Below are positions 650-64,000 of a stretch of DNA of 64,000 nt, in pieces. The stretch is from Daphnia carinata (taxonomy: Eukaryota). A program made the translations under genes and the position numbers. The DNA lies in contig NC_081334.1 in NCBI RefSeq assembly GCF_022539665.2, positions 1,860,001-1,924,000 on the forward strand, given 5' to 3'. Within the stretch, counting starts at the first letter, position 1; every line of letters starts with the position of its first letter. The notes under the pieces are model-generated. The model did no database searches. It worked only from the letters and a program-made list of their open reading frames with translations, and was not told where the DNA came from.

Positions 650-2985
650 AAAGCAACTTTTAATTTTTCTGGCATCTACATTCACGCAAATATTGGATGA
701 AATTTCTTATTTAATAAAGTAACATTTATTTTAGCTCTTCATTCCAGGTTACTGACAATCTGCAAGCTGATCAACAAAGATGTTTTGTTACTACAGAGCT
801 TGATTTGCTTGTTGCAACAATTGATAACAGAAAATGACGATGAGGATGACGTTTTGGTGAATGTGATGCACTTGAAAGGTGACAGACAATTATGTCCCTG
901 TAACTAGTATGGCTTGGAATTTAGTTTTTTTCCCCCGATGGTTAGTACATCTATAGTTTCAAGATAATGAATAGATAGGTAAAAGGCTTTTATTACTTGA
1001 AATGCCTTATAATTAAAAATTACCATTTTCATACAAAATTAAGGCTACCTGTTCCAGGGATTGATAGTAGAAAGTGATGGTGAGGTTTTGGGGAGAGCAA
1101 CTTCCTTCAAAAGTTATTTTAAAAAATCAAGGTATAAAATATAGATATGAGTGTCTCACAAGCTATTGAATGTTTAACGGAAAAGGGATTTCTATTACTT
1201 GAAATGGTGATTCTAACAAAATACAATTTTTGTGCAGAAAGGTTTTCATGGAACAACACGCTGGTGAACGACTGACGAACTTGTCAACAAGTAAAAATAT
1301 TGGGTGCTACTAACGAATGAGTTTGCACAGTCAAAATGGGCTTGTAAAGAATGGATTGTTGAAGAAGACGATGGACTGTGGTGCCTTGGCGCTAAACACA
1401 CTGGTAGCCAGTAGATGGCGTGAAAATCCAATGACTGAAAGGCTAAGAGATGGCGTAGCAAGTCGGACGTGACCCTGAAAACCCAATAGATGGCGTAGCA
1501 AGCCGGACGTGACCCTGAAAACCCAATAGATGGCGTAGTAAGTCGGACGTCACCCTGAAAACCCAATAGATGGCGTTGCAATTTGGACGTGATCCTGAAA
1601 ACCCAATAGATGGCGTTGCAAGTCTGACCTGAAGCCGTAGCGCTATAAATGGCGTTACGAGTGTGCCCTGAATCCGTCACCCAACGGATGACGTTGCAAG
1701 TCTGACCTGAATCCGCCACCCAATGGATGACTTTGCAAGTCTGACCTGAATCCGCCACCCAATGGATGACGTTGCAAGTCTGACCTGAATCCGCCACCCA
1801 ATGGATGACGTTGCAAGTCTGACCTGAATCCGCCACCCAATGGATGACGTTGCAAGTCTGATCTGAACCCGAAGCCCAATGGAGTTTCAAGGCTGGCCTG
1901 TAGTCCGGCGCGGCGTTGCGTGCTGCCTTGAACCAAACTGAAATTCTTGGCCTTCGATGAATTTTCGGGTACTTCTTCACTTTGACAAGCTCAAGTTTTC
2001 TAGACTGATCTTATTTAATTTTCTTGACATAGGTTAGATGAAGAAAAGTAGTGAAATGGAAAATGTTCTGCGGAAATGTTGAATGTTCAGATTTGTAACA
2101 GCTGTGAGATGGATAATTTCACTGTCACACATCTTGGTATATCTTTTATCAATTGACTTAGTGTTGAACTTCTTGCAAACTCATTTCCTCTTGACTCATG
2201 TAGTAAAAGAAAGTGACACCGCATATGTAAATACCTTACATAGGAAAAGTCATCTGCGCTGTAGGATACAACCCTTTGTCTGTCTTGTAGATTTTTAGGT
2301 GCAGTTAGTTAAATGCTGTGGTAATGATAACTTACGCTGGCTGCCTAACATTCCTTAAGTTGAGTTTTATACTAATAGAAATCTCATGGTAACTAAATGA
2401 AACACTATTTCTTACGCCTACCATAGTTTTGCAGATACATCTGAAATGTCAAGTTTTGTTGAGGTCATCAATTGATACAATACCAACAAATTTATTTCAC
2501 AGTCGTGAAATGAGTAATGGCTAACATATCAATTATACCAGGTAAAGTGAAAACACTTGTAATCTTTACTTCGACGTAGCATTACAAGTAAAATTCACTT
2601 TGGGCTGTTAGAATGCAAATAATTTTTAATCTGTTGATGGGTGCTTAAAGAAATTTTCTTTGTGGTTTTTAGATATGGTGGAACTGATACTACAGTGACT
2701 GTTGGAAGGTGTTTCTGAGCATCATTTATCCCTTATGAAGTCATGACCCTGTATTGGCGTACCAATTCAATTGACAATGTCTTATATGTGAAAATAATGG
2801 ATAATTTTAACCAGTGGATGTGTGCCCAATGGTATTACTTGAAAGTAATTTGTAATTTATTTTTACAAGAACGGATAACTGTAAAATTTTTGCATTAATG
2901 CTTTTTGGCTTTGTAGGAAATGTAATTCCCTCAAACATGTGTGATCTACTGTATAGGTAATCAAAGCAATTTTTCTTCAGAGTGC
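650..2985 (+). repeat. Repeat module B, left copy (decayed spliced gene-like sequence with internal minisatellites)
   Basis: Colinear by-eye homology to the reverse complement of 61465-63600, e.g. 2918-2960 GGAAATGTAATTCCCTCAAACATGTG versus 61495-61540. AG/GT-bounded exon-like blocks are shared. Confidence 0.8.
1408..1880 (+). repeat. Tandem minisatellites: about 4 x 40-bp then about 5 x 39-bp units, each with a CTCF-like core
   Basis: Unit GACCCTGAAAACCCAATAGATGGCGTAGCAAGCCGGACGT recurs at 1471/1511/1551/1591. Unit GTTGCAAGTCTGACCTGAATCCGCCACCCAATGGATGAC recurs with a 39-bp period to ~1865. Confidence 0.95.
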
Positions 2986-3154
2986 TGAATTAAGTTCGTG
3001 TCATGAAAATGACTATGGAAAAATTTTTAAGTAACTTGAATTGGTGATTAACATGGTACTTTTTTTAAGGATTTTTTTTAGGAATGTTTTCAACAAAGGC
3101 AAAATATTTTTCAAGGGGTTACCCTTGGTTAATGTCACATAGTAGACAGAATAG

Positions 3155-3900
3155 GAATTTAATGTCACGTCAATGGTACATAACAGTATTTTAGTTCTAA
3201 AATGGCGGGCAAAAATTTCTTTGGGCCGTGTATTAAGTTATCTTATCAATGTTTAAATTAACGACAAACAAACGCTTAGGATTGAATTAATTCATTATGT
3301 TCGTATGTATAATTTTATTTTTAAAATATTTTGTGAGATAACTTCTGTTAAAGGAATATTTCAGACAGTGTAGAGGCAAAACATTGAATTTTCCATATAA
3401 TAGTAGTTTAGGAGGGTTCAATTGATACTGCATATGCCTTTCTTTTTGTAGACAACGAAGTTTTGTTTTACACTGCTAAAAAAATGAGTTATGCATCCCT
3501 TCACATTAATGTTAAAGTAGAATAACATTTACTTTCATATTTTATTCTAGGTTGCTGCCAATCTTTGCTAGCTGATCATAAAATGTAGTGTGGTTACATA
3601 GGTAGGTTCATCTTTCTGTTTTCCTGACAGAATGGTTCTCATTAGGTAAAGAAAAAAACATTTACTTATGAATTTTATTTCATAAGTTGTGGTCAATCTG
3701 CTAGCTGATTTATTAAGATTATTGTGACTACATAGCTTTGTTTGCCTGTTTCACGAACCGAAGAAACACGAAGTACGCTCAAAAGATGGCGTGGCAATCC
3801 AATGGATGGCGGCGCAAGCTTCGTCCGAAAACCAATAGATGGCGGAGCAAGCTTCGTCCGAAATCCAATAGATGGACTAGCCAACCATCCTGCAATTAAT
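3155..3900 (+). repeat. Second, partial module-B-related unit with a 33-bp minisatellite (3799-3880)
   Basis: 3165-3210 resembles 441-490 (CACGTCA..GGTACAT..TAGTTC.AA.ATGGCGG). 3370-3600 matches the reverse complement of 63660-63990. CCAAT(A/G)GATGG recurs with a 33-bp period. Confidence 0.7.
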
Positions 3901-4220
3901 GGCGTTGGAAGCTGCACTTGAAATCGAATAGCTAGAGTTGCATGCTAGGTTAGCAGGCAATTTACTGCTTAGTTGTCTACCAAACAAGGGTAAATACCTT
4001 CTTGGTGGCTGTTATACGCAGATTTATTATTCGTTGACGATAGATTCTAGGTATATCAGACAAGAACACTTAAACAGGAGCAAAATATTTTTCCAGTGAC
4101 TACCACTGGTTTTCTTCTCAAATGCTGTGGGGAAGCCAATTAGGAATTGTTGGCTTTTGATGAATGTTACAGGTACATGTTTATTTTCACAATCAAAAGT
4201 TGTCTGCATTAATAAGCCTG

Positions 4221-4455
4221 CTTCACTTTGTTAAGATTGCGTATCAAACTGAATGTAGCCTATCATTTCTCTGCTTAAATCTAGTCTTTCGTACGCAGTG
4301 TACAGCAGAGAGAATTCGTAACGAGAATTCTCCAGTTCCGCCAATGGGGTGAATCGAGACTAATCCACCATACTATTTCGGCTATTTTGTTCTACACCAA
4401 TGATAGATGGCGTTTAGGTGATGTTTCGTTGTTTGTTCATAGATGGTGTTGTAAG
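4221..4455 (+). repeat. Module C, left arm of a degenerate inverted repeat pair
   Basis: Aligns by eye to the reverse complement of 9930-10215 (TTCACTTTGTT; TGAATGTAGC..TCATTT..ATCTAGTCTTT; TGGGGTG; TCCACCAT; two ATAGATGG motifs). Confidence 0.65.
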
Positions 4456-6127
4456 CTGCGTTTCCGCTTGTAATTCAAAGATCATGAGGCAATTCAGTAA
4501 CGACAACTGTTTTGGAATTGGTATGATGGAACTCTGGTAGGAAACTGCAAGTTGTTTTCTTGCAGGAGTATTAAAATAACAAAAAACTTTTGAAACAGTG
4601 TCCAAAAAATGTTTGTGATTTACTTGTTTGTGATTTACTTTTTTGAATTACAAAGATGCTGAATTGCAAGAAAGTGCTTATATTGGAAGAGGAGACTATA
4701 AGGCACATACGTCGAATATTGATCGATTACTCAGGAAGGAACGATTTTAGTCTTACTCTTCTGCTGGATTATGGCATGCTACCAACATTTTCAGCTCACA
4801 CAGGTATCTGCTTAGCCTACTTAATAAGATGATCTTACTTAAAATTTTCATTCGTTACTGTAAATGCTACTACCATATCACTCCACAAACAAAACTGATT
4901 TGTGGTGTGATGAAATAAGCTGTTACTGTAGACTTTGGTCTTGGAAGTTTTCCAGACCTTACATCAGCTGTATAAGTGTGTTGGGTATTGGTGATAGGAG
5001 ATATTGAGTTTTGGAATGATATGAATGACAGGACAATCATTATAGAATCTTTAGACCAGCAAGCCATACTTTCAAACTAAAATTTTCTCCTTTGGCTTTA
5101 GATTTCTGTAATGGCTTTGCCTCTGATGATGTTCAATTAGGGCACCTTCCATTGACTAGTGCATGACAAATGAGCCTACACCTAACAACTTTGCATATTC
5201 TGCATGTCATTTTGCACTAGTCATTGGTGCATTCTTGTTGAACCTCATTTGTTGAAACTGTTGTTGAAACTGTTAGGATCAGCTGGTTGCGATTACATGA
5301 TATAGTTCATCGTCTGATAACAAGATCAGTTAATTAATTGAAATTGGAATGCAGTATATTTTTAATGGATCCCCTGTTTGTTATTAGATTTCGCAAGTCA
5401 TTGCAGCCGTTTCGGTGTTTGCGCTGCGTTCCACTTGCAGGATTTGTCGAGTTGCATTCAACAGCCGTCTTGTGAATGACGATGAGAACGTAAGCATCAG
5501 TGAATCTGATTACAGTCTGGCATTCGCTACTGATCTTTTACGAGTTAACAATCAATTGTTGATAACTTACGCCAATTAAGTATTTTCCCATATCAAAAGC
5601 AAGACATTCAGCTGTACTGGAAGGGATATCCAATTATTTTTTGCCTTCCGGCCGACCTGTAGCCCACCGTAGCTCATGCAGCAATTAATGGTAGGTTTTG
5701 GTGAAAGTTCGCCGGTCGTCAGATAAACTTATATAGTAGGTACATTTACTATTTCTCGTTCTTTGTCACGTTATACGGCTGCAAATTGATTCTCAGGTAT
5801 GACGTGTCTCTTGGTCTCATCTCGTTGCCTTGTATTTTTGCTTTTTATCGACAAAGGAAAAGAGAAGTTTGATTCTCGGGGCTGTGATGTACATGTAGAA
5901 AAACCAGGTAAGATAAGTCCCATTTTAAACAAAAATATGTAGAACACTTTTATGCTAGAAGAACTGTTTGATGTTGGTTGGATACGCGCATATGGAACAG
6001 CAGTGAAATCTTTCTTAAATGTTGAATCCAAATAATGTATTTTCCTCAATACTTAAATTTGTGAATAAACACCTTGTTCTGAAATTCCTGTTAGATTTAC
6101 CTTTATTTTAGTAATAAATAAAAAACC

Positions 6128-7014
6128 AGATGTCGCTGGTGCGCAACCTTATTTGTTTACTAATGATGTGTGACAGTGGTGTGACAAGTGAAACTTGTTT
6201 GAAAGCTTTGGTTAATTGTGTTATATTCCAACGGGCAGTTATGTAAAACTAACTACAATTATGTGACTTACTCCATGTATAGTTTTTGGAAGTTAAGCAT
6301 ACCAAATGGTTGATTTTTTATGTAACAGGTAATCTTGTAAGCTATGCAGGCTGCCAATTCCAAACAGTCATTGATTACCCTGTTAAATTACCTTAGCATT
6401 CCATCATGCTATTGTGTTGTTCATCGAGAGGTATCTAACTTGTATGTTTGCCATTTGTTAACCAATTGACATGATTCTACCTTTAAGATCTTGCTCGTGG
6501 AACTTGCAACGCAAAGGATGATAACCTGGAGGAAGGTTACCAATGTTGTGCATTCGTGGAATCAATATGCCACTGTCTCCTTCTGCCACACCTTACCCAG
6601 ATATAAGAATCAGTTTTGATCTGATAGATGCATTGTGTTTCACTTTGTTTTGTTAAAAACGGTTAGCCACCAGCACCTGCCAACACACATTGACATTGAT
6701 GTCAAACCAATCTCTTTTGGTATTTTAAGTTTTAGGCTAGCCTAGTATTGCTTTTCTTCAAATTTAGTATTCCATCGTAGGACTGCCAAGCCTCAGCCTT
6801 CTTCAGCAAAATTGGTTGCTCTACAATTCTTGCAGTCTTCACCAACAGTTGTAAGTAGAATGGCTGTCTTCGTTATAATTAAGCCAATAATCCTAAAACC
6901 CCATGCAGTGACATGTTTTCTTCAACTTTATCATTTAGAACCATTTCATCTTCTCCTTCAGTCCCACGCAAAATTGGAAATTGAAATCCTAAGTTTTGCC
7001 TGTCTTCGCTTCAT
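6128..7014 (-). pseudogene. Decayed ORF of unknown family in module A
   Basis: Both copies start ATGAAGCGAAGA. Stretch DSGILIPRMHNIGNLPPGYHPLRCKFHEQDLK versus DSGVLIPRIHFVGELPPGWHLFRCKFHKLDLK in the right copy shows several synonymous differences. Stops and frameshifts occur elsewhere. Confidence 0.4.
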
Positions 7015-7047
7015 GGTCCGTCTGCGCCTCGCTCGTCGCATTATCTT

Positions 7048-7335
7048 CGCCTCGCCCGTCACCCCGTCGTCGCCTCGCCCGTCGCCCCGTCGTCGCCTCG
7101 CCCGTCGCCCCGTCGTCGCCTCGCCCGTCGCCCCGTCGTCGCCTCGCCCGTCGTCGCCTCGCCCGTCGCCCCGTCGTCGCCTCGCCCGTCGCCCCGTCGT
7201 CGCCTCGCCCGTCGCCCCGTCGTCGCCTCGCCCGTCGCCCCGTCGTCGCCTCGCCCGTCGCCCCGTCGTCGCCTCGCCCGTCGCCCCGTCGTCGCCTCGC
7301 CCGTCGCCCCGTCGTCGCCTCGCCCGTCGTCCCGT
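7048..7335 (+). repeat. CpG-rich 23-bp minisatellite (CGTCGTCGCCTCGCCCGTCGCCC)n
   Basis: 23-bp period (7065, 7088, ...), about 12 units, essentially no A on the + strand. A degenerate counterpart lies at ~59760-59920. Confidence 0.95.
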
Positions 7336-7462
7336 CTACGCCTCACCGGTCATCCCTTCTTCGCCTCATGGTTGCCTCGCCCGCCATCCCGTCATCGTTT
7401 CGTGGTCGCCGTGTCTTCGCCTCGTTTTTTGGTATTGTGTGTGTTTTGTAATGTTAAGTATT

Positions 7463-7783
7463 AACTAACCCGTTGGCTGCCACCCCACCTTTTATCCCCT
7501 TTTTTTTTGTAGCTTGACAGGGACGGGCCGCGCTGTTCTGCGCCATGGTCTATCTGCCATGGGGTGGAGCAGCGCCACTGCCCAAAATTGGCCGAATGGC
7601 CCCAGGCAAGGCACCATAGGGAATCCCTTGTTCGAGACGGCGATGTAGACCTGGGATGTGCCTTTCCGGAAAGGTCTCATCGCCGTTTCAGCCCGGACTG
7701 TCCTCAGTCCCACTTGGTCGCTATCCCTATGATAGCGACGTAGCGACCGTAGTTTAGATGGCGTGGCAGCCAACGGGTTAGTT
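7463..7783 (+). ncRNA. Candidate structured RNA (IR-bounded, multi-helix, pseudoknot), copy 1
   Basis: Perfect 21-bp IR at 7463-7483/7763-7783. Internal helices have G-U pairs on the + strand and compensatory changes relative to copy 2. Confidence 0.6.
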
Positions 7784-7920
7784 TTAAGTGTATTTATGTA
7801 TGTATTGTATGTTGTATTATGTGGAATATGTATAGTGGTGGATTTGTGGGTGGAAGGAGGGAAAATAAAATGCTTTGTAACATTATTTACTTTTTGCATT
7901 TATTTATATAGTTGTTTTAT

Positions 7921-8353
7921 TGACTGATATGGGGATCGAACCCGAGTACTATAGTATGCTAATCAGTAGCGTTGCCATTATGCCATCTATTACTTGTTGT
8001 TTCATGATACGCATTCCATAATAACCTAATGTCGAACTTAGTTTAACATACGCATCAAAATCTAAACTAATGTTTATGAGGACAGTCTTGGCGCAATGGT
8101 AGCGCGCTGTGCTGGAATGCGATAGGTTTGTGGTTCAAATGCATCACAATTTGAAATTGTCTCACTCTTGAAAAGCGTGAGAAAAGTCTTCGTGCAGCAT
8201 CAATGTATTTTCGATTAAAATAATTTTTCATTTTTTAGGATATTCGACATTACAAGTAGGTTGTCGGAAACAATCCGTGAGTGGAACATCTGGGAATTGA
8301 ACCCTAGAAATTCAACTTCTTAAGCCGATGCTCTACCACTGAACTATATCACA
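7921..8353. promoter_or_regulatory. Three tRNA-like Pol III A/B-box units (-,+,-)
   Basis: Minus 7921-7990 (TGGCATAATGG / GGTTCGATCCC); plus 8082-8153 (TGGCGCAATGG / GGTTCAAATGC); minus 8281-8353 (TAGTTCAGTGG / GGTTCAATTCC). Acceptor stems do not pair. Confidence 0.7.
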
Positions 8354-8639
8354 TGTTTTAATACTACTATTACTAATAGCGAACGTAGGAATAAGATTTG
8401 GACTTAGAAAAAAAAAGCAAACTCCTTTTTCGTTGCCTGACCATTCACTGGCTCAGAACATCGAAGCAAAGACCCAGGCCACTTGCCTTTACGAATACCA
8501 ATACCTAATATCCTGAATACCTTTTTATTTTTCTCAGAGGGATGTCTTTCCAATGTTTCACATATTGTACATCAGTTGTAGAGAAAAATCCCTTTTTCTC
8601 TAGCGCGTACAAGTACAAGTTTTTTTTAGCATCATGCTT

Positions 8640-8644
<5 letters not shown>

Positions 8645-8674
<30 letters not shown>
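8645..8674. repeat. (AC)n microsatellite
   Basis: About 15 AC units, directly visible. Confidence 0.98.
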
Positions 8675-8678
<4 letters not shown>

Positions 8679-9929
8679 TATGTATATAACCAAACATACA
8701 ATTTAACTTAAAAATCACGTCCAATAACTTGGGACCTTACGGCGAATTAGGAATGATGAACAATACAATGAAATTGCAAATCAGCTCACCCCGCCAGTTC
8801 CAATAAATGAGGTTTGCAGAAACAATGCAGAATATGGCAGGTGTTGAGGTGTATAAGGCTCATTTGTTGTGCACTAGTCAACGGAAGGTGCCCTGATTGA
8901 ACGTCAGAGGCAAACCCATCAAAGGGGAAAATTTTAGTTCGAAAGTATGTGTTATTTGTCTATACATTCTCTGCTTACTCTAGTTTGTCCTGTCACTGAT
9001 ATTATTTTAAAACTCAATCAGTCCTATCACTAATACCTTACGTACTTTTACGGATGATTTTAAGTCTGGAAAACATCCACATCTACAGTGACTGCTATTT
9101 CATCATATCACAAACTGTTTTTGCCTGCAGAGTGATATAATCTTAGCATCTACACGAATGAAGAGAATTTTAATTAAATTACTCAATCTTATTGATAATG
9201 CTAGGCAGTTACCTATGAAATCGGAAATGTTGGCAACATGCCACATTTCAACAGAACTGCAAAGACCGTAGTCATCCATTCTTGAGCAGTCCATCAATAT
9301 TTCTACATGTACGCCTGATTTTTCTCCTTACAAGAAAAGCTTTGTATTTGCCACTGGGCAAATAAGCTATTCACACATTTGGTTTTCACTTTGCATGTGT
9401 TTAGATTTATGAAAATAATATTAACACCTAATGGCCTCTGTATAAAATGCTGTGTTATTCTTATCATTCTGTACAGAAAAACTTGCAATATCATACCTGA
9501 ATTCCAGAACAAATTGTGTTTATTGAATCAACTTGCGATTTTTGTGCTTCAAGCAGAAACATGGCCAGGTATCTTGAACCAAGTAAACGAAGATGACATC
9601 AGATACTTGCAAACACAACCGTGGAATGATACAAATGACGCAAGTGCAAGACAGAATGAGCGACTACCCCACAGGTAGTTAGACTGGCACGTGTTAGAAG
9701 AAAAGTGAAACATTCATCAAGGCGTCGCTTGAAGTATATGCCAACTGTAAAAGTTTTAGCTTTTGTTGCAAATGTATCCAATTTCTACAGAGTTTAACAC
9801 CAAGAAATCCATTGTCAGTTTTTTTAAAAATTGTGATAAAACTGAGTTCTTTCAGGGATTCCTGTGCTTCCTTTTGATGTTCAACTTTGTGCAAATCCTT
9901 TTTTTTTCTTTTTTTAATAACGTAAATAT

Positions 9930-10215
9930 ACATTACTTCGCCATCTATGAATCAAATAATTTATCATTACTTCCAATACGCACACAAAAATTCTATATTA
10001 CCTATAGCGCCATCTATGAATGGTGGAAACAACTGTGAAAGCAAAAGCAATTCAGTCGCCATGGAATGGTGGACTCACACCCCACATGGCGTAGCCGGTG
10101 ACTAGCCGGAACCAATTTCTTCCTACGCTGCACTCCTTACGAAAAAAGACTAGATATTATCGGAAAATGAAAAGCTACATTCAACTCAATACACAGTTTT
10201 CACAAACAAAGTGAA
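9930..10215 (-). repeat. Module C, right arm (inverted relative to 4221-4455)
   Basis: Counterpart of the left arm. Contains CGCCATCTATGAA twice (~9939, ~10009). Confidence 0.65.
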
Positions 10216-11177
10216 ATGACAACGTTTAGTTGTACTGGTCCCATTTCGAATGTTTAACATGCAACATGTTAATAGGCAACATATCTTTAGTCTTGATAAC
10301 ATTCCAAAACGTTATTTGTTACATAAATTTCAACTCTTTTTTTTTTTATCTTTGCTCAGGAATAAAAAAAAACAGCGTACTAACCTGAAGTAAATTGTTT
10401 TCAAACTGTTACATGATAGCTTGCACGTGACCAGAAAACCAAACTTTTGTGCTCAGGTGATTTCCAGAGAATTCGATACCATGCTGACTCCTTCACTAAA
10501 AAAAAAGGCAGGCAAGAAGCGATAGGATTTCATTTTAAACGGCTAGCTGTCCTTTAGACTTCATAGAAAGTATATCATAGCAACAAGAAGGAACAAAAAC
10601 CTAACTTACATCGTTCACCCATGACACAAATGCAACTGCCAGGAACAAAGCAAGGTGAACAGTGAAGGGGACAAGCAAGGCAACTAACAAAGGTAGCCAT
10701 CTAGCGTTGGCGGCATAGGAGGAATAAAATCGCAAGGCCTAATCAAAATTGAAAGCTGATTTTGATAAAGTTATTGGCTTTATCGTTAAACCAGCTATTT
10801 TTTAAATTAAGTACGTTTGTTTACGTTTACTAAATAACTGCCTTCCCAAATAGGATTTATAATATTATCGGTAAGACGCCACTTGAGGCAACCACATAAC
10901 AAAAAAGTCTTCAATATCAGACCTGAGATGGCCTTACTCACCGGTCGTCGTACATGGAACTAGACACCAGATGTCATCTACCGTTCAAGTTATGAAACAA
11001 GGGCATTTTTATCAAAACAACAACGAGAACTCACTACTTAACCACATGTGATAGATAGAGATCTAATCAACTGGAGTATCAGTCTTTTAATCAAAGTTCG
11101 TTATTAGACACTTAATTTCATCTGGGGCTCTTCTCTTACGCCAAACAAGAAGCCACACGCATCTAATGTAAATTTAA

Positions 11178-13632: not shown

Positions 13633-13700
13633 GTTTAAAATGTTCTATATTTTGTTGAAACGACAGAAAATAAAATTAAAAATTTATTATTGTTTTTATC

Positions 13701-15039: not shown

Positions 15040-15546
15040 GTCATACTTTACAAATAATATGAATTTTTTCTGTAAGGTTTCCTCACAAAACAAATAACTA
15101 TTACACAAACCTAAGACTTCCTCTTTCTCTTAATTAAGATATTTAAAAAAAGAAATTTCTACCTAGATTTAACGTTCTTAATTCAAGATTATTTAAGACT
15201 TACAAATGGGCTACCAGTTACCGCTTATGTTGGTAGCACACGTGAGACTGCAGAGATTGAGAGAACTAGAATTCATGCAAATGTTTACATTGAATTCGGC
15301 TGCTTGTTCATCGATCATGGCTTCGTCGAGATTTTAGCCTCACGAAGTCACGATCGTACGAAATAAATAACTGTTGATCAATAAATTGAAAATAATATTG
15401 GTAAAAGTTAATTGAAAAAAATAACTGCATGATTGCGTTAGCCAAATCTTTATCAGGAGACTTGTTAGAATTTTTCCTCATAAAAAACTTCCCAGCTTGC
15501 CCGCATGGTGAAACTTCACCGCTGTTCGCATCATAACAGTTTGAAA

Positions 15547-16142: not shown

Positions 16143-16201
16143 TTGTAAATGATGTAAACAACTGTGTGTATTTGTGTTTTTGATCAAAGTAAATTCTTTC
16201 A

Positions 16202-20303: not shown

Positions 20304-20456
20304 TGTTGTAAGATTTGTCATCTAGTTCAATTACACATAACGTTGGATTTCCTTTTTTCCCTCTTTTTCAGTTTCGTATCGTTGACTACCGCTGTTAGAT
20401 CAATAAGTCTAGCAGCTTGTGCGTTTCAGAGTCAATACTGGAGGTAGAACGGCAGA

Positions 20457-25312: not shown

Positions 25313-25628
25313 CTCTAAACTGAAATTTACAAACTTCGGTTGTTCTGTTACATCATGTGAGCAATAAATTTTATTTCGTACAATTTTTTTGAATCACGCC
25401 CATGTTTCGATCATTTTTCACAAACATGCCATTAAAAAACATTGGATCGATCCAGCGTACTAATTTCATTCGTCAGATGGCAATTCCATCGCCACAGTAG
25501 ATGGCGTTGGTTTTGTTTTCTTTTTTGACCTTCAATCCGGTCTTTCGGAAATTTCCGATCGTTGGAATATTTCTGAAAATTTAGTAACTAGAAGTCGTAA
25601 AAGTTGATATAGGCAACGTTCGCCAAGC

Positions 25629-27057: not shown

Positions 27058-27555
<498 letters not shown>

Positions 27556-28045
27556 CTAAACAATTTTCAATTTTTCAGCCTGGGTTTCTTAGATAAAAGA
27601 CAAACGATGGAATATCGGAAGGAGACAAGAGTAACCTTACTATCTATTTTCAAGTATGTGGAACTACTAAAAGAAATACAGCATGTAAACGTCCAGCATT
27701 GCCAGTTTCATTACAATAACAATTCTTGTTTTATACAAACTCAGTGCTGGTTGTTATGGAATTGTAGGATAGATCTATTCTACGACCCTGGTTTTCACTT
27801 GGCGGCTTGCGCAGACTTTTCAAATCTCATGATGACGGCATATACAAATTGCTAATTAATAAGCCACTCTTTATGGAGATGAGAACTCCTACTCATGGTT
27901 TCACCAACAAAACTATGGCGCCATCTAGCGGAACGGCGACAGTCTTTATTTAAAAGTGCAGAAGGCTTCTCTTGTTGTGTTTTCTTGTCAGTCACAGTTG
28001 TATTTAAGTCGTCATTGGGATCACGTTGTAAAGGACTCAGAGAGA

Positions 28046-50642: not shown

Positions 50643-51144
50643 TTTTTACACAGAAGTTTGGCTGAATCACTGAAAAATAGCAGACGGAAGTTAATCTTTC
50701 CTTGTGCAGACGACATGGAAAAGAACAAAATAAAACAAATTGACTAGTCATGTCGTGTTTCGAACTCCCAGTCATGTATTTTTCATTCCTATAGCTAGTG
50801 CATAATTATAGTGAACGAAGTTCAAACTAACAATTTAGATTAGATAGTACACCCTTAAAACAAAGTAAAAAAAAAGAATTCATATAGTTTGCACCGAGTA
50901 AAATTGTTGTGACACTATCGCCCACTGTCAAGCTAACCTGCCAAACGTTAAGTTCCAACAAAACTTGGCAATCTAGATTACAATCTAATTACCAATTACC
51001 CCGAAGAACAAAACTTTTTCTCGTGTGTTACAGCGTACTATAAAGTAGTTGCTACTAATCAATTTATACAGGCATTTTGAGTTAACTCTGTTTTGAAATT
51101 TGAACCGTAAGAAGGATATAGCAAAATCAAACATCCCTCAAAGA

Positions 51145-54100: not shown

Positions 54101-54393
54101 CTTTATTCTCTAATTAGGTGACCTCCACTGATCGACGGGTAAATTTACTAGAAAATAAAAATAGTAAATACACGAATAATTTATTCATGCAAAAATAGGT
54201 GGTAGATCGTGCCAGAAGCTGGTGTAGTATGATTGGCTGTGCATATTTTCGGCTGTCTCCTTGCTTTACGAAAGATATCGCTCTAGACGAGACCCGCAGC
54301 GAACAATTAATCCCAATGCTTTGGGAAACTAAAGCTTTTATCCACTGTCATACTGCCGACTTCAAAAAGATTGCACAACTGCTGAAGGCCTAG
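51145..54393 (+). CDS. PLA2G6: 85/88-kDa calcium-independent phospholipase A2 (iPLA2-VIA)
   Basis: Ankyrin repeats ([22 protein letters not shown]) plus patatin motifs [25 protein letters not shown] and DGGLIANNP. 21-nt micro-exon at 54118-54138. Confidence 0.96.
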
Positions 54394-55124
54394 ATTGAAT
54401 TGAACGTTTCGTGTTCTCTCGTTATGTAACATTTAAAATTGGCAAGTAAAGCGAGGTTTGTTTTTCTGGCAAAAGTTGGATTGGCAAACGAAATACACTT
54501 TCATTGCATGAATTACTGTTGAATTTGACCAACAAACGCATATTCGTTCGTTGTGCCAGCAGAAACAGACGCATTTTACGAGATTTATGCAAAGTTAATT
54601 ATGTTTCATGAGTCCCAGTTTAAAGTAAAGTAATTTTAAGAGTTGTCGTAAACAGAGTGTTGAGTTTTGAGCACGCTGTACAGTAAATAATACTGCCAAC
54701 AAATGACAACGCAGTAGTAACTAGAGACGAAAATTCGCGTTCTCGTAGGATTTCTAGTTAAAACGGTGCTGCTATAGAAAATTACGTAATCACGTTTCAT
54801 GCAACAACCAGTGATTCATGTAGCTTTGTGGTGGCGCGCAATATTTTCGAAGTTTTGGGCGGCTCCAAGTTTGGCAACCGTTGTTTTCCGCACCCTTGAA
54901 GACAGAGAACGTCTGCTATTGGAATGTACGGTTGCCCAAACCAGTGTATAGCCCTCCTTCCAGGAACCCCACACCCATAGTGGACGTTTTGACAACCCGG
55001 ATCAGTCTTTTGGACAATGATCTTGTGAGTGTTGTTCGTGAAAAACGAAAATCTCCAATGTCGATGATATTTTCTTTTAGCTTTTGAAGTGCATTCGGAT
55101 CGGTGTTAAGTGTGGTTACTAAAA

Positions 55125-56346
55125 ATGAGTGGTTATGGCCGTAGAAGAAGTCGAAATATTAACCACATCAATGTTTGTGTCAAATATACCATTTTCTTCT
55201 TCAACTTTGTGTTTTGGGTATGCAAATGTTAGGATTTGCGGGGACGCTTTGCGTTATAAATGATGCTTTTTGTTGTTTTTTATTTACAGCTTCTTGGTGG
55301 TATATTTGTTGGAGTTGGACTTTATGCATTCTTTGAAAAATGGAAGGGCACAGGCTACAGTCTGGTCTTGAACGCTGAGCAAATGATTCTCGATATTTCT
55401 ATCATCATGCTTATTGTTGGTTTTGTCATGTTCACTGTGAGTTTTGCTGGCTGTGTTGGGGCTCTGAGAGAGAACTCCTGTCTTCTCAAATTTGTAAGAA
55501 ATCAGAAATTTATATTTTAAAATTTTTCTCATTAGTATAGTTTGTTGTGTTTTCTAGTACTCTGCTTGCCTGTTATTGTTTTTCATAGCTGAACTGGCCT
55601 TGGCTACACTTGGATTTGTTTTTCCACAGAAAGTCACAGGAGTATTAGAAAAACACTTAACTTCCAAACTCATAGAATTCTACAGGGAGGATCCTGATCT
55701 CCAGAACATAATTGATTTTACCCAGCAAGAAGTAAACTCTAAATAATTGATATTAATGATTCTTTAGTAACCAAAACTTGCATCTATCTTAGTTCAAATG
55801 TTGTGGCTTGAGCCAAAGTGGATACTTGGACTGGTCTCAGAATGAATACTTTAACTGCACAAAAACCAACCCTTCTGTTGAAAGATGTGCTGTGCCCTTT
55901 TCATGTTGCAGGAATCCTGCAGACATCAATGTAAGTATACATCATTTTATGGTAAAATAATTTATTTTCATATATACGTTCCAAAACTTTTTAGACTGGT
56001 CTGATCAACGTGATGTGCGGTTACGAGGCCCAACAACTTACAGTAATATTATATCTTTTGATCTGTCGAAATATTATAAAAATAAAAACCATTTATAGGA
56101 GCTTGAAGCCGCAAAGAAAATCCACATTAGCGGTTGTATTTCTATCATAGAAATGTGGGTGTATGGAAATCTCTATATAATAGCGGGCATAGCCACAGTC
56201 GTGGCTTTTGCGCAGGTAATTTTGCTCATAGCTTCATCATTTAGTATTTCTCTTTACGCACTGTTCTTTTTTAGCTTTTCGTGATTTTCTTGGCGAGAAC
56301 CCTTGAGGGACAGATTCAACGGCAGAAGTCATTATGGATGCGCTGA
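55125..56346 (+). CDS. TspanC8-subgroup tetraspanin (Tspan5/14/17/33-like)
   Basis: [61 protein letters not shown]. Confidence 0.92.
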
Positions 56347-59300
56347 ATTTTACGTAAGGCGCCAGTTCTCTGATTTCAAAGATCATGGTCAACAGAACAA
56401 ACACCCTATTTTCGGTCATACCTTCTATAAAATCATGTTTGCTTTATTCGCGTGTTTGTCGTGCATGTGATACTGCCTCTCTTGGCGCCAGAGAACTCCG
56501 TAGCATTCTCATGATGTAATTTTCATCGTTCAAGTTTCGTTTAGCAGAAATAAGGAAGATCACTTTTTCTAATAAAAAATATAAATAAAAAAAATTATAT
56601 CTATTTCTTGTCTGTTAAAGATGCAATGAAAACGTTTTGACGAAAAAGGGATACCCAATAGGGATATTAAAACATTTCATTTAAAGTTTCTCGTAATGAC
56701 CGTTGCGTCCACAAGAGGCGCCTTAAACCGTGGCTCATAGGGTAGTTTTTTTTTTGTCATACATTCCTAAATTTGCTTAACGCGTGCAGTCCGCTGTCTG
56801 CTTTCCTCGCTAGATTTTACCTCTTGACCTCGTGTTAGTTGCGATTTTCGGCAACAAATTTACTCATTTTTCAATGCTGTTCAAGGTACGCTAGGAGAGA
56901 AAAGATAAAAGCTATGCTTAACAACTTAAAAGCTTTAACAGGGTTTAAGTTTATTACAAAACCTAGAAGTGTCGTGAAGCACATGGGTCAGGAATATCAT
57001 CGGGATTTCGACTTACCTTGGTAGGTGTGTATTGTGTTTTTCAATTTCCACTTGCACACCGTAATCTGTGATTACTAACTAGTGAATCATTAGAGGATGT
57101 TAATTTTTGGAACCTAAAGCACCTTCGCAAGCTCCCGAGAATCAAGTCAAAACATATAAGTAATTGAAAGATTAAGATTTTAGCATGGACATTAACCATC
57201 CATCATTGTTTTGGTCTCTATAAGGTAAATTGTAGACTGTTTTGTTCTAATATGAATTTTTCTGTCCAGGGCACTTAATGTCTGACTTTCCATTACAGTG
57301 GAACAATTACAGCTAGTACTTACAGTAGTTACAACACATGAACAATATTGAAGCTTCTATAAAAAATGCAATAGCATTCACAAGGGAGTGGGTTCATAAG
57401 GACTGGCAAATGTTTTGATTTTGCCCTTGATCTAAGGAAGTTGTCTTTCAAACGGTAATGTGATGTCTTATGGGCACCATGTATAAAAAATCTTCATCAG
57501 CATTCCAGAAACTTCTTCACTGCAGCAGTTATCCTTTGGTAATAATCAAAAATTCTATGCATTTACTGAAAGATCCAGGAACGATTGCTACAGGAACATG
57601 TATGAACACTCAAAATCAGGTGTGATTTTGATCTCAACTCCTTTGGTCCTACATTATTAATGTCTTTTGGGTTAAAAAAGCTACGCCTGAGAAACTTCCT
57701 TAAGGAATAACATTAATGGTATTACTTTCTTTCATTTACAATTGGTTTCTAACTTCTAAGGTGCCACCAGCCAACTCAACAACCAGAGGAGTGCTAGACA
57801 TTTGCGGGTGAACGTGAAAATAGTTGACCGCCTGTTAATTGTAATTCCGATTTTGCTTAAATTTTTATTTTCGATGGTGCATAGACATAGTTGAGTTGCT
57901 GGTAATTGTAATAACCATCATCCTCTGTTAAGTCTTTCAAAAATCGTAAGACCTATTAAGGTATAATTTTTCTGAGAACATTAAGAACCATCTTTGTTTC
58001 CTTCTAATATTTTTTTCTCTAGGTTACTTAATGTTGGTAATTTACATTACGCCAGAAAATACACCAGCAGTCAGCCACCAGGCACTAGGTTTACGAGTAC
58101 TACCTTGCCTTGCTAAAAGTGTTAGGTTTCCCTAGGATCTGCGTAACCGTCAACGTGTTCGACTGACTGTCTCCGATTACGTATCTGCTGAAAGGTAATA
58201 TGTCGTTTTATCGGACATACAAGCTAAAGAAATAAAGTAAGATAAAACGGGGGGGGGTTATAAATTATAAAATATGCTTCTCTGTTTGGGCTGATGCGAC
58301 TTGACTTTATTCGACGGAACATGCCATTTCGATTGTGCTGATGGTTCGTGTTTATGGTAAAACTGGCGCATCTTAGCTGATTACCATTCTTCCTTAGACA
58401 ATGTCTGGTTTCTCACTCGTCCTTTATTTCTCACAATCCCTTTCGGACAGCATCTAGCATGAGAAACTTTAACAGGGGAAATAGATTATCCGCTAATTTC
58501 TCTGGGATACTTTCAACGTGTTTTATACTTTTTTATTCTATCGTTTGACTGTAAGGACTGGCGCAGAAAACTAATGTTCTTTTTTTGTCATTTTCTTTGT
58601 TAAATTGGTATAAGCACAAAGGGCACATAGGTGCAAGCGATACCGAACCGCTTAGGTTTTAAATGCAAATTACTATGTCCTGTGGTTTTGAATCATTATA
58701 TGGCCGCGTATTTGTATGTTGTACCGTGTATTTCAATGGGAATATCTATGTTTTCGAATAAACAATTTGTTCCCTAATTCATTTTTGATTCGTTTTGATT
58801 GTAGTTGTAAAAAAAAAACTAGATGTCGCTGGTGTGCTTCCAATATGGTGTTGTGAATACGTGTGACAGTGGTGTGAGCAGTGAAATCTGTGTTTGAAAG
58901 TTTTTGTTAAAAATGTTTTATTCCAGTGGAAAGTTATAAAAAACTAACTACTATTAAATGTTTTATTCCCTGTGACGTTTTTGGAAGTGAAGCACACTAA
59001 ATAGTTCATTTTTTACGTACCGGCAATCTTGAAAGCTATCAATTCCAAACAGTGACAGATTGCTCTGCTACAAAACTTTGACCGTAGCATTCCAACATGC
59101 TACTCTGTTGTTCTTTTTAGAGGTATTTTACTTGTACAAGGCGCTTAGTATACCCTTTGGCATGATTCTGACTTTAAGATCTAGCTTGTGAAACTTACAA
59201 CGGAAAAGATGCCAACCAGGAGGAAGTTCACCAACGAAGTGAATTCTTGGAATCAATACACCACTGTCCAATTCGCCTACCCTTTGCCCTAGTCATCAGA

Positions 59301-59981
59301 ATCAGTTTTATTCTGATAAATGCAGCATGTTGCTCTTTCTTTGCTTTCCAACAGTTAACCACTATCAATCAACACACACAGACATGGACATCAAAACCAA
59401 TCCCTTTTGGTATTTTAAACTTGAGATTTATCTAGTATTGCTTTTTAAAAATTTAATTTCCCATTGTAGGGCTCCCAAGCTTTCAAGTTCTTCAGCAAAA
59501 TTACCAGCCCTGCAACTTTTGCAGTCTTCAAACAACAGGCTTAGGTAATTGTTTTCCCTGTTATAATTACACCAATAATCTTATATTCCACATGTAGTGA
59601 CACTTTTTCTTCATATTTATTATTTAGTACTATGCCATCAGCTTCATTCCCATGCAAAATTGAAACAAAAATTCTAAGTTTTGCCCGTTCTTCGCTTCAT
59701 CATCTGTCGTCACCAGGCTTTTCGCCCTATCCGTCGCCCAGTCATCGCTTCACCCTTCGCCCTGTCTTCGCCTCGGCCGTCTCCCCGTCGTCGCCTCGCC
59801 TGTCGCCTCGGCCGTCTCCCCGTCGTCGCCTCGCCTGTCGCCTCGTCCGTCGCCGTTTCGTCGCCTCGTGGTCTCCCCATCTTCGTCTCGCCGGCATCCT
59901 GTCGTCGCCGTGCCAGTTGCCCCTTGGTCACCTTGTCTGCGTGGTATCGTTATTTTTTTTAATGTATGTAATGTATAATGT

Positions 59982-60301
59982 AAACTAACCCGTTGGCTGC
60001 CACCCACCTTTTATCCCCTTTTTTTTTTTTAGCTTGACAGGGACGGGCCGCGCTGTTCTGCTCCATGGTCTATCTGCCATGGGGTGGAGCAGCGCCACTG
60101 CCCAAGATTGGCCGAAAGGCCTGTAGGCAATGCACCACAGGGATTCCCTTGATCGATGCGCTTGATGAGACCTGGGGTGTGCATTCCCGTAAAGGTCTCA
60201 TCATCGTGTCAGCCCGGCCCCCTGGCCCCCTTTATCGCTATCCCTAAGATAGCGATGTAGCTACTGTAGTTAAGATGGCGTGGCAGCCAACGGGTTAGTT
60301 T
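59982..60301 (+). ncRNA. Candidate structured RNA, copy 2
   Basis: Perfect 22-bp IR at 59982-60003/60280-60301. Same helices as copy 1 with covarying pairs, plus a GGCC-GAAA-GGCC tetraloop hairpin. Confidence 0.6.
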
Positions 60302-60419
60302 TAAGTGTATGTATGTATGTATTGTATGTGTATTATGTAAAGTGGTGGATTTGAGGGTGGAAGGAGGGAAAATAAAAAGATTTTAAATTATTTATATTTG
60401 TATTTATTTTATTATATGG

Positions 60420-60814
60420 TGACTGATTTGGGGATCGAACCCAAGGAATCTCACACGCTTATCACGTGCTTTACCATCAATCTAACCACTATTCATTAAC
60501 TATGAAAAAGCTATCCCATAATAACCTTGTATAGAACTCATTTCAACATACCCATAAAAATCTAAAGTTATGTATGAAAGGAGTGATGGCACAAAGGTAG
60601 CGTGCTGGACTGTAGTGTCGAAGGTCTGGGGTTCAACTCCCAGGCCGGGTGCTATTGCTGATACGACCACCGATAAGCGCCCCAAAAGTTTCTGATCGCC
60701 GAGGAGAAAGATTTTTTACATTTAAGGGCGTTTTGTGTGTCATGGCGACTCTGAGTATTGAACCCTTGACCTTCGGCTTCTGAAGCCGATGCTCTACCAC
60801 TGAGCCATTTCACA
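60420..60814. promoter_or_regulatory. Three tRNA-like Pol III A/B-box units (-,+,-), copy 2
   Basis: Minus TAGATTGATGG / GGTTCGATCCC; plus TGGCACAAAGG (60587) / GGTTCAACTCC (60630); minus TGGCTCAGTGG / GGTTCAATACT. Confidence 0.7.
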
Positions 60815-61464
60815 TATTTTAGTACTACTATTACTAATAGCGAATGTAGGAGTAAGATTTGGACTTAGAAAAATAAAAGCAAGCTGCCCTTTCGTTCACA
60901 GACCCTTTCATACACTGGCTCACTACGCTGAACGCTTACCTTCCTTTGCCTGTACATCACTTGGCTCAGAACATCGAAGCCAGAACCCAGGCCGCTTGCC
61001 CAATATAATTTTTTTCTCTGACAGATGTTTTTCAATTTTATCAGATATTGTACATGAGTTACAGAAAAATCCTAAATTTTTCTCTAGGGTATTTTCTACA
61101 GTACCGACAGCCCTTTTTCGTTTCTTCTGTCATTCGCCTGTGACGACGCTGACAAATTTTTCGTCGACAGAAAATTTGTGCATTTGACATGAAATTACAA
61201 ATACAGCAAACAGAAAATAACCGTCTTATTCGTTATTTTCTATTTTTTACAACCAAACCCACACACATGTTGTATCTGTATATATAATTTGACTATATAC
61301 ACATGGTTTAGAATGGGAGACAACAATAAGATGTAAATATAAATAATGTGTTCTACTAAGCTCTCAATTTCAGAAGAATGGAAGAAAAGAAAAAAATTAC
61401 TGATTACTCACGCGCAAAAAAAAAGTCGTTTCCAGAGCAATTCCAGTTGTAAGCAGAGAGAAGA

Positions 61465-64000
61465 ACTTCGAAGAAAAACTTCTTCGATTGCCTATACAGC
61501 AGTTCATCCACATGTTTGAGGGAATTGCAGTTCCTGCAAAGGCAAAAAGCATTAACGTAAAATTTTGTTATCCGTTTTAGTATAAATAAATTACTTTCAA
61601 GCAACTTTTTTGGGCATACATACACTGATTAAAATCACCCACTATTTTACCAGACCATAGGCGATTTCAATTGAATTGGTATGTCAATGCAAGGATCACA
61701 AGGATTGTGACTTTACCTGGCATGCTCAGGAACACCTTGAACAGTCAATTTAGTATCAACTCCCTCATACCTAAATACCACAAAAATAGTATATCACAGC
61801 AAAAAGGCAATTCTTTAGGCATACATCTACATGTTAAAAATTATTTGCATTTTAACAACTCAAAGCCAATTTGGATTGCCAACTGGATTGCTATGTCAAT
61901 GAAAAGATCACAAGGATCTCTACTTTACCTGAAATAAACAATATGTTGGTCATTTTTCATTTCACTGCAATATAATACATGATGGTATTATAGATTGATT
62001 ACCTGCATAAAGCTTTACATTACAGATGTAGCTAGAAAACAATAACCTAAGAAATAGTATTTCATTCGAGTTACTATGAGAGTTCTACTAGCATACAACT
62101 CACCTTGATGAATTAAATACTTTAATGTTGTGCAGCCAGCACTACGTTTCAGCACCAAAATATTCAACAACTAATTGCACCTGAAAGACTACAAGACAGA
62201 CGGAAAATAGTATACTATAGTAAAGGTGATTTTTCCCACATCAGTTACTTACGTAGTGTCACGGTTTTACTACACGAGTCAATAGGAAAAGAGTTCACAA
62301 GAAGTTCAAGCATTAACTTCAATTGTTAAATAAAAATACCAAGCAGTGTCGAAGTGAAATTATCCATACCACCGCTGCTAGACCTTTAAGACCATCCAAC
62401 TTTTACACAAAACATTTTTCAATTCATTATCTTTCTTCATCTCAAATATATCAAGAAACTTAAACAAAGATCTATCTAGAAACCTTTTGCTTGTCTAAGT
62501 TAATACATACCCGTATATCCATCGAAGGCCAATAATTTCTGATGGGCTTAAGGCAGCAGGCAACGCCACGTAACAGACATCCAGTAAGGCTTACAAGGAT
62601 ATCTGTTTGGTATCAGGGCAGATGGTTTTGAACGCCATCTATCGAATCAGGCGTTTCGCGCGCCACCTGTTGGACATCAGCACAAGTAGATTCGCAACGT
62701 CATCTGTTGCAAAATAGCCTTAACAGAACTAATACCATTTATTATGCGAATAAGATTGGCACGCCATCTAGTGGGCAAAATCAGGACTTGCCACCATCTA
62801 GTAATCGAATGTGAAACTTTCTTCCGCCATCTAGTGGACCAAATGCAAAGTGGATATGCACGCCATCTAGGGGAGCAAATGCAAAGTGGCTTTTCACGCC
62901 ATCTAGTGGACAAAATGCGAAGTGGTTTGCACGCCATCTAGTGGACAAAATGGCAGGTTTGCGACGGATCAAACGGGAAGTTGGTTTGCACAGCATCTAC
63001 TGGACATCGGCGCAAGTGGCATTGCCACGATAGTATATCCCATTGTGTTCTTTGCAAAACCATACTTTACACGTCCATTTTTCACTGTCCACTATCATTC
63101 ATTAGTACTCACCTTTATTTTATACCTGCATTGTTTTTTACAATTTTTGAATGAAGTTCCTCTCCCCAAAATCTCAGCATTTTCTACCGCCAATCCCCTG
63201 AACAGACAACCTTAATTTCGTGTGAAAGTGGTAACTTGTTAATCATTCTTTCAAGTAATAAAAACCTTTTTCCTATAAACTCATTTTCTTACAACTATCG
63301 ATATTGCCACCAGTGAATTAAACTAAAAGTTAAATCATACTAGTTAAAAGAAGAATATTAGCTTGTTACCTTTCAAGTATGCCACTTCCACCAAAACCTC
63401 ACCATTTTCTGTTTGCCATTCTTGGAACAAGCAAACCAAACTATGTAGTTACAAAACATCTGTTAATCAGCTAGCAGATTGATAGTAACCTGGAATAAAA
63501 TGCTAAAATAAGTAAATGTTATTTTACCAAACGAGGTATATCATTCAATATTTGTGTGAACGTAGAACAAGCAGCAAATGTCAAGAAAAATAAGTTGGGT
63601 TCATACACCCATAATTACCTATAATTAAAGCAGTATTATTTGCTATCAATTCTTGGCATGGCACAGGCTAACAAAGCTCTACATAGCTTTGTTAGCGCAT
63701 CTACATCATATTTTATGATCAGCTAGCAAAGAGTGACAGCAATCTGAAATAAAATGTGAAAATTAATTTGATTCTACTTTAACATTAATGCAAGAGGATG
63801 TAGAACTCAGAAAAACAAATAGTTGCTTAATTGTTCCTTACTTTAATGTTTAAGCAGTAACTTGCCGTTGAATGCTGAAACTTGAAACCTACTTAAAAAA
63901 AAAAAAAATTGAATGATTAATGCACAGACTTAGACCAACTCTGCTGAACATACTTAATTACTTTGTTGAAAATTTAATGTTCTGCAACTTTATTGCCCAC
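61465..64000 (-). repeat. Repeat module B, right copy (inverted), running off the window end
   Basis: The reverse complement matches 650-2985 and 3370-3600. In-frame stops and a frameshift occur in exon-like blocks. Confidence 0.8.
62630..63006 (-). promoter_or_regulatory. Array of about 10 CTCF-like motifs (CCACTAGATGGCG and variants)
   Basis: CGCCATCTAGTGG at ~62762, 62825, 62897 and 62932, plus variants, mostly spaced ~30-36 bp. Confidence 0.65.

Follow-up and report, generated by a model that had tools for sequence, protein, structure and literature searches.

The 64,000-nt window analyzed here, by which we mean the whole stretch of Daphnia carinata DNA (contig NC_081334.1, positions 1,860,001 to 1,924,000), carries repeated sequences of three kinds, modules A, B and C, in the two flanks of a block of host genes. 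We propose, with confidence that is evenly balanced, that A, B and C are three separate non-coding, transcribed and spliced units resembling long non-coding RNA (lncRNA) genes, which were copied as plain DNA segments, and that they do not make up one mobile element. The flank pattern is real and is probably ordinary; the conserved, facing core of the arrays in B is the one feature that, judging by its letters, could exceed the ordinary.

In a self-BLAST of the window (alignments of at least 100 nt, E ≤ 1e-10, places more than 1 kb apart), all nine alignments fall within the two flanks (1 to ~11000 and ~56500 to 64000) and none in the interior, which bears out the claim of an earlier note on this DNA that the same repeat family lies at both edges of the gene block. 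The order and orientation given there also stand: B(+), partial B(+), C(+), A(+) and C(−) on the left, and an unrelated stretch, A(+) and B(−) on the right. The module copies, each delimited by BLAST and nhmmer, are:

687–2986, + strand, B1
3485–4205, + strand, B2 (partial)
4222–5205, + strand, C1
6055–8605, + strand, A1
10215–8825, − strand, C2
58752–61089, + strand, A2
63554–61462, − strand, body of B3, with a 5′ extension to 63809

For B, the BLAST alignments pair 675–1144 with 63566–63113 (74.2%, E 2e-79) and 1909–2986 with 62570–61462 (71.6%, E 6e-162), while the partial copy pairs 3485–3584 with 63809–63710 (84%) and 3652–3757 with 63525–63419 (76.6%). C is aligned at 4715–5205 versus 9301–8825 (71.3%, E 2e-66), and A at 6063–7274 versus 58756–59933 (73.2%), 7186–8138 versus 59731–60636 (76.6%) and 8289–8455 versus 60750–60922 (83.2%). 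With BLAST E-values from 1e-66 to 0, the module pairs are not chance matches. Every pair is colinear end to end in nhmmer: B1 687–2985 versus 63554–61463 including the tandem arrays; B2 3486–4205 versus 63808–62478; A1 6059–8605 versus 58752–61089; and C1 4227–5205 versus 10206–8825 (4227–4422 versus 10206–9997, and 4453–5205 versus 9567–8825). Identity is 71–77% by BLAST outside the conserved blocks described below, and 76–78% in global alignments of the left part of A, of B and of C. The 22–25% substitutions in the global alignments, together with many indels, rule out an assembly duplicate; given full-length colinearity as well, the view of the earlier note that this is an old, diverged yet colinear family holds.

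Each of A, B and C has its own sharp limits, with unrelated DNA in between (2990–3484, 5211–6054 and 61091–61461). A and B are neither spaced nor oriented relative to each other in the same way on the two flanks, ~3 kb separating B1 from A1 and only 375 nt separating A2 from B3, and module C is confined to the left flank. The 5′ limits of the three B copies are unlike, a 5′ stretch being common to B2 and B3 and not present in B1. B2 contains the start of B, the array and the first part of the B body; its 3′ end adjoins C1, and the match of 4132–4205 to B1 1930–2001 marks it as a colinear copy with internal losses. C2 carries ~430 nt that are not in C1. Because the 5′ limits of B vary, B2 adjoins C1 with internal losses, C2 has this extra sequence and the A–B spacing differs, the module limits are not like those of an element.

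Transcription was assessed with contigs of the public run X1, in which 48% of sampled words of positions 1–10000 are present. Run X1, labelled 'DNA?', behaves as an RNA library, since its contigs skip short introns of a coding gene as well as those of the flank transcripts; in the tetraspanin gene, exact contigs skip GT..AG introns (56042 to 56099 and 56213 to 56273; depth 428). Contigs of X1 indicate presence, not copy number. In a further run, X2, no contig matched the left flank. The 'spliced cargo' of the earlier note turned out to be real splicing: X1 contigs cross GT..AG or CT..AC introns in A1, A2, B1 and C2. The GT..AG joints are 601 to 733 (B1), 6428 to 6486 (A1; a 57-nt intron, three contigs) and 59408 to 59469 (A2; three contigs), and the CT..AC joints over C2 are 9149 to 9213, 9437 to 9497 and 9944 to 10002. 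The transcribed parts are as follows, where pre1 and pre2 denote the two copies of an upstream exon region:

436–534, + strand, pre1, upstream exon region of the B1 transcription unit, belonging to the first exon known for B1; an X1 contig covers 439–601 exactly
733–976 and 2203–2539, + strand, non-coding, spliced exon pieces of B1; exact X1 contig pieces
3159–3266, + strand, pre2, second upstream exon region copy, ahead of B2; nhmmer match to 436–534, E 3e-4
6212–6428, then 6486 onward, + strand, non-coding, spliced exons of A1; exact X1 contig 6212–6428/6486–6638
9150–9212, 9438–9496 and 9945–10001, − strand, introns of a spliced transcript over C2; CT..AC joints in X1 contigs
59177–59395, + strand, exon of A2, with an intron at 59409–59468; exact X1 contig, and GT..AG joint in three contigs

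The C2 transcript includes an exact piece, 9497–9944, of a 907-nt X1 contig of depth 123, and its joined exons hold no open reading frame (ORF), with stops in all three frames. In tblastn of the left-flank ORFs against the right flank, all six frames match about equally, and amino-acid identity is ~40–65% outside the conserved blocks, below nucleotide identity. A 47-codon ORF across the A1 intron, read by eye, meets an in-frame TAG in the aligned A2 copy. Coding paralogues are ruled out by the lack of frame preference, the stops in the C2 transcript frames and the in-frame stop in A2. The modules are non-coding; they are gene-like transcription units, of which A1, A2, B1 and C2 are spliced. 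Splice sites at both ends are kept between A1 and A2 in both of the A introns examined, and the exons of A are no better conserved than its introns. As would be asked of duplicated lncRNA-type units, the modules are transcribed and spliced, keep their splice sites and have no conserved ORF.

Features of transposons were sought in the same modules. The statement of the earlier note that no transposon protein is recognisable is sustained: of the 143 stop-to-stop ORFs that reach 55 aa in 1–12000 and 51000–64000, searched with Pfam, none carries a transposase, reverse transcriptase, integrase or Rep/helicase domain. Matches at or near the curated cut-off belong to neighboring host genes, namely radical SAM (2 ORFs), ankyrin (3), patatin (1) and tetraspanin (4), and matches below the cut-off (Lem_TRP, SPDY) look like chance; the two flanks themselves gave no protein-domain match. 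When the first 100 nt of A1, A2, B1, B3, C1 and C2 are compared with the last 160 nt, allowing one mismatch, neither a terminal nor a subterminal inverted repeat of 10 nt or more recurs in both copies of A, B or C; A/T-rich chance matches of 10–11 nt occur in A1 or A2 only, and none in B or C. The alignments reveal no matching short direct repeats, as would mark a target-site duplication, at the homology limits of the modules. Nor is there a flanking direct repeat pair around any module, as expected of a long terminal repeat (LTR), and reverse transcriptase and integrase are absent from the 143 ORFs. Helitrons begin with 5′ TC, end in CTRR after a hairpin, and insert between A and T. Rep/helicase is found in none of the 143 ORFs, and CTRR is absent at the ends of B. 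HINE elements have subterminal inverted repeats and a TT target (PMC4067079); of the HINE features described in the available part of that paper, the modules have none except central tandem repeats. Our literature search (Daphnia with MITE/SINE and Helentron topics, that is, miniature inverted-repeat transposable elements and short interspersed nuclear elements) returned no paper describing these repeats.

The Kimura two-parameter (K2P) distances of the module pairs are alike: 0.296 for the left part of A, 0.270 and 0.280 for B, and 0.287 for C. One common divergence would fit a single duplication epoch for the A, B and C pairs. Judging by the similarity of pre1/B1 and pre2/B2, a transcription unit appears to have been duplicated in tandem along with its upstream exon, giving B1 and B2. 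We infer segmental duplication at the DNA level because transposon ends are absent, the upstream exon and B form a tandem pair, and there is one common divergence. The proposed events would be: (i) a local inverted duplication of a stretch with A and B; (ii) an inverted duplication of C around A1; (iii) a tandem duplication of B including the upstream exon; and (iv) further copies elsewhere in the genome. The units would make up a small family, and MITE-like, tRNA-like and tandem-repeat parts are nested in them. The modules resemble segmentally duplicated lncRNA loci in being non-coding and spliced with conserved splice sites, in having tandem and inverted local copies with variable limits and a common divergence, and in harboring nested small transposons. 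They differ from such loci in that they have closer copies elsewhere, that conservation in two internal blocks is double that of the remainder, and that arrays of a core resembling a protein site occur in all B copies.

Several observations weigh against duplicated lncRNA-like units. X1 contigs that are 80–95% like the flanks number 200 of 264 on 1–11000 and 141 of 208 on 56001–64000. Many of these stem from high-copy hairpin and foldback elements, and some, in unique parts of A, B and C, fit neither window copy:

6408–6489, 6413–6486 (spliced at the A1 intron), 6822–6939, 59122–59287 (depth 88) and 59393–59475, diverged contigs in A
61622–61663, 61962–62346 and four contigs at 63483, diverged contigs in B
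4294–4415, diverged contig in C

From the letters of these contigs, each family has relatives elsewhere that resemble a window copy more closely than its partner in the window does; the additional copies expressed elsewhere number at least two or three for A and one to a few for B and C. A dispersed, decayed transposon family would show the same contig pattern. In favor of duplicated units, contigs at any single site in the unique module parts are few, with 1–5 diverged ones per listed place; a hairpin block nested in A has a summed depth of 750–900. The equal divergence may in part be an artefact, because pairs far below ~70% identity are undetectable and old repeats pile up at that limit; moreover, a single transposon burst would yield the same common divergence. 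At the 3′ limit of A, both copies have a small hairpin and then CTAG, and the hairpin has persisted despite sequence changes, which is reminiscent of a Helitron end. The full Helitron ends are not found in A: the base after CTAG is C or G, not T, and the 5′ TC is present in A2 only. Finally, 7447–7872 and 8289–8455 (59967–60379 and 60750–60922 in A2) are about twice as conserved as the rest (K2P 0.15 versus 0.27–0.30 elsewhere), and simple neutral duplication does not account for this doubled conservation. The former consists of the hairpin block and ~90 nt beyond it, and the latter of a tRNA-like piece and ~100 nt upstream.

The main rival to duplicated lncRNA-like units, possible and clearly the less probable of the two, is that A, B and C represent, in decayed form, two or three non-autonomous, unclassified transposon families unrelated to one another, which happen to lie nested or adjacent in gene-poor DNA at both edges of the gene block, transcription and splicing being incidental. 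It would explain the further diverged module copies transcribed elsewhere according to X1, and fits the presence of clear small transposons nested in the flanks (the foldback at 88–438 and the hairpin block with 21-nt inverted repeats in A). The stretch at 56500–58750 to the left of A2, which the earlier note had left as unknown, is likewise multi-copy in X1, where as many as 5 contigs cover a single place. Tandem arrays are known in non-autonomous elements from HINE/DINE-1, as the available part of PMC4067079 describes. The modules are like HINE/DINE-1 elements, which are non-autonomous Helentrons, in lacking coding capacity and having central tandem repeats, and A has a hairpin and CTAG near its 3′ limit; unlike HINE as portrayed in that part of PMC4067079, they lack the 12–13-bp subterminal inverted repeats, T-rich limits, a TT target and a Rep/helicase partner in the window, and are 1–2.5 kb long and spliced. 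However, A, B and C show no known kind of ends, none of the 143 ORFs encodes a transposon protein, the upstream exon was duplicated together with B, the splice sites are conserved, the limits differ among the three B copies, and the three pairs share the same divergence.

Drosophila foldback (FB) elements, and the giant transposons flanked by them, have inverted copies with tandem arrays around long host DNA. The earlier note had offered two readings, remnants of an undescribed large mobile element or a domesticated boundary cassette. A single large composite element might, for instance, have been of the foldback or long-inverted-repeat type with the order B-C-A-C′-B′, with inverted B copies on either side of the gene block that could at one time have mobilized it. 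We consider this very unlikely. C copies do lie inverted on either side of A1; B1 and B3 are mutually inverted and both carry tandem arrays, as foldback arms would; A and B occur together on both flanks; and A, B and C have diverged equally. Yet the full arrangement is present on neither flank, the right one lacking C and the left-hand B and the left one lacking the right-hand B. Unrelated DNA intervenes between modules that each have limits of their own, the A–B spacing and orientation differ, there is no transposase, and terminal repeats at the outer limits, LTRs and complete Helitron ends are all missing. B1 and B2 are in tandem, not inverted, and the enclosed genes are ordinary conserved host genes. 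As foldback arms, B1(+) and B3(−) have a K2P of 0.27–0.28, arrays in both, and the tandem B2 beside them. The likeness to FB elements is in the inverted B copies with tandem arrays on either side of host genes; the differences are arms that are 24% diverged and 58 kb apart, spliced units, a tandem pair on one side, and the lack of terminal structure or transposase. If duplicated lncRNA-like units are the right reading, the modules are one more example of the Daphnia-type 'unclassified repeat' fraction and not a new class of mobile element. On that reading, for annotation, duplicated spliced non-coding units should not be called transposons merely since they are repeated.

The B arrays deserve separate treatment, as a matter of function that is compatible with an origin by duplication or as transposon relics. 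The 'insulator-like sites' of the earlier note correspond to tandem arrays of one conserved core, which each of the three B copies holds at a corresponding position. The arrays, delimited with Tandem Repeats Finder (TRF), are:

1411–1883, + strand, B1 tandem array; TRF periods 40 and 39 nt; 10 motif matches
3782–3948, + strand, B2 array; TRF period 33 nt; 3 motif matches
~62633–62952, − strand, B3 array; TRF period 36 nt; 6 motif matches

The motif counted is ATRGATGGCG with one mismatch allowed, which occurs 31 times in the window versus 4.5 expected; none of 100 shuffles reaches 31. Nineteen of the 31 matches lie in the three B arrays, the 13 left-flank ones all on the + strand and the 6 right-flank ones all on the − strand. 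Unit consensuses were derived for four arrays (6, 4, 4 and 7 units). Of the 19 columns in and next to the core, 13 are invariant among them and 5 more are identical in three of the four; of the other 21 columns, only 1 is invariant. The core of ~19 nt contains CCA(A/C)T(A/G)GATG(G/A)CG, and in the B3 unit reads CCACTAGATGGCG. Since identity is confined almost entirely to the core columns, the site has persisted through replacement of the remainder of the unit.

The core fits a YY1/Pho-type site about as well as a CTCF site, and among CTCF consensuses it fits a degenerate string, for which no paper was found, better than the strict one. Against the strict consensus CCACNAGGTGGCAG as printed in the available part of PMC5846894, the core reaches just 10 of 13 specified positions in B3 and 9 of 13 in B1. 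The + arrays on the left and − arrays on the right form a convergent arrangement; convergent CTCF sites mark loop anchors in mammals, according to the same part of PMC5846894. However, the strand opposition follows automatically from the inversion of B3, so that the facing orientation is not independent evidence of function, and unequal exchange alone keeps tandem units alike. The literature search found no paper on Daphnia boundary sites and no CTCF or insulator chromatin immunoprecipitation or Hi-C data, that is, no binding or contact data for Daphnia. The gypsy insulator is an array of Su(Hw) sites, SINE B2 spreads CTCF sites, and duplication can seed possible boundaries. Like these, B is a repeat unit that carries an array of a candidate insulator-protein site; unlike them, B holds no retroelement, and its core is CTCF-like or YY1-like by sequence only.

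Based on the motif excess and on the core being kept while the unit turned over, it may be, though we think it unlikely, that the B units, whatever their origin, have been kept because the CTCF-like or YY1/Pho-like zinc-finger-protein sites arrayed in them serve as paired chromatin boundaries or loop anchors around the gene block. In its full form the proposal would be that the inverted B units together make a boundary cassette, in which convergent, paired arrays ~61 kb apart (1.4–1.9 and 62.6–63.0 kb), borne by duplicated lncRNA genes and kept by selection during turnover of the remaining repeat-unit sequence, anchor a chromatin loop around about ten conserved genes; this too we hold to be improbable. 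If it were true of a crustacean, duplication of a non-coding unit could create a new insulated domain. The B arrays are the part that merits follow-up, as they bear on arrayed, oriented sites as domain boundaries in arthropods outside insects.

Lone cores of the GATGGCG type also occur outside the arrays, at 4403–4412 (+), 9939–9948 (−), 10008–10017 (−), 25497–25506 (+), 27919–27928 (−) and 53025–53034 (+). The core at 27919–27928 reads CCGCTAGATGGCGCC and is the best CTCF-like match in the window. The core sites of C1 and C2 lie at homologous places on opposite strands, and a YY1-like AAGATGGCGG site is found at 473–482, within pre1.

Module A contains several nested parts, and the 'structured RNA' of the earlier note corresponds to a 322-nt hairpin-forming block together with tRNA-like sequences:

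6972–7415, 23-nt tandem array of A1; 15.6 copies, TRF
7463–7784, 322-nt hairpin block of A1, within the better-conserved 7447–7872
7920–7992 (−), ~8070–8140 (+) and 8282–8352 (−), tRNA-like pieces of A1
59731–59869, degenerate 23-nt array of A2, TRF
59983–60301, hairpin block of A2
60743–60814, − strand, tRNA-like piece of A2; Rfam tRNA, 30.4 bits

In A1, the hairpin block has perfect 21-nt terminal inverted repeats and a predicted fold of −167 kcal/mol (z = −11 versus 100 shuffles). It occupies an equivalent site in A1 and A2, and was therefore present before these separated; there is no clean target duplication. Selection on the fold, as a source of the doubled conservation, is not borne out: of the pairs affected by changes, structures predicted from one copy alone re-pair 8 of 24 and 6 of 20 in the other, about as expected by chance. 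RNAalifold, with a structure chosen using both copies, keeps all 93 pairs and finds 2 compensatory changes. The 21-nt terminal repeat and a 26-nt stretch of the inner hairpin each gave 0 loci in metagenome contigs, where the species is probably absent, so that copy number is not addressed. A 135-aa ORF across the block (7495–7899, −) has no relatives in the protein database, which is uninformative as such ORFs are rarely called as genes.

The tRNA-like sequences, three within 450 nt of A1 and alternating in orientation, have counterparts in A2; they are degenerate, one being about at the Rfam threshold. Rfam scores a tRNA with 27.6 bits at 8282–8352 (−), as against the 30.4 bits in A2 and a gathering score of 29, and ARAGORN calls a tRNA-like sequence at 8281–8352 (−). 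At gathering scores the tRNA-like match is the only one in Rfam, and a permissive search of both A tails adds only chance-level rows (SCARNA7 on an AC repeat, mir-645 and PAGEV). This sub-part of A has a tRNA-like head with A and B boxes, as do tRNA-derived SINEs; the stretch downstream of the head (8150–8280) is the least conserved part of A, and no SINE tail or target duplication can be assigned there.

A second small insert lies beside the modules:

88–438, foldback MITE upstream of B1; 108-nt arms, 93% complementary

It is flanked by a perfect 8-bp target duplication, GTTCCACG, at 80–87 and 439–446, and has a summed contig depth of 325. A diverged X1 contig that joins 79 to 467 without the foldback points to a related locus without the insert. 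Both inserts are like hAT-type MITEs, 88–438 in its 108-nt inverted arms and 8-bp target duplication and 7463–7784 in its perfect 21-nt terminal inverted repeats and stable fold; unlike elements that would bound the modules, they are small inserts inside or beside them.

The stretch at 56500–58750 has no relative in the window. Several diverged X1 contigs map to it, up to 5 at 57467, and it probably belongs to a further repeat family.

The window has a base composition of 39% G+C, and introns are short and spliced. Its interior is the ordinary gene block:

~11.5–56.5 kb, ~45 kb of Daphnia-type host genes
11563–13632, + strand, radical-SAM and MoaC gene (MOCS1-like)
elsewhere in the block, genes for CstF77, LCAT-like, RCC1-like, MARVEL, TPR, RsfS, ankyrin-patatin and tetraspanin proteins

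The longest open frame in the window, 432 codons at 45153–46451 (+), has no Pfam match. The CstF77/Suf exon at 17028–17501 (−) has 99% identity to a protein cluster of Daphnia magna and 96% to Eurycercus, and insect sequences do not exceed 76%, which identifies the DNA as that of a cladoceran, Daphnia or a near relation. At 11563–13632 (+), a MoaC exon follows radical-SAM (MoaA-like) exons, all on one strand, which we take to be the fused MOCS1-type layout usual in animals.

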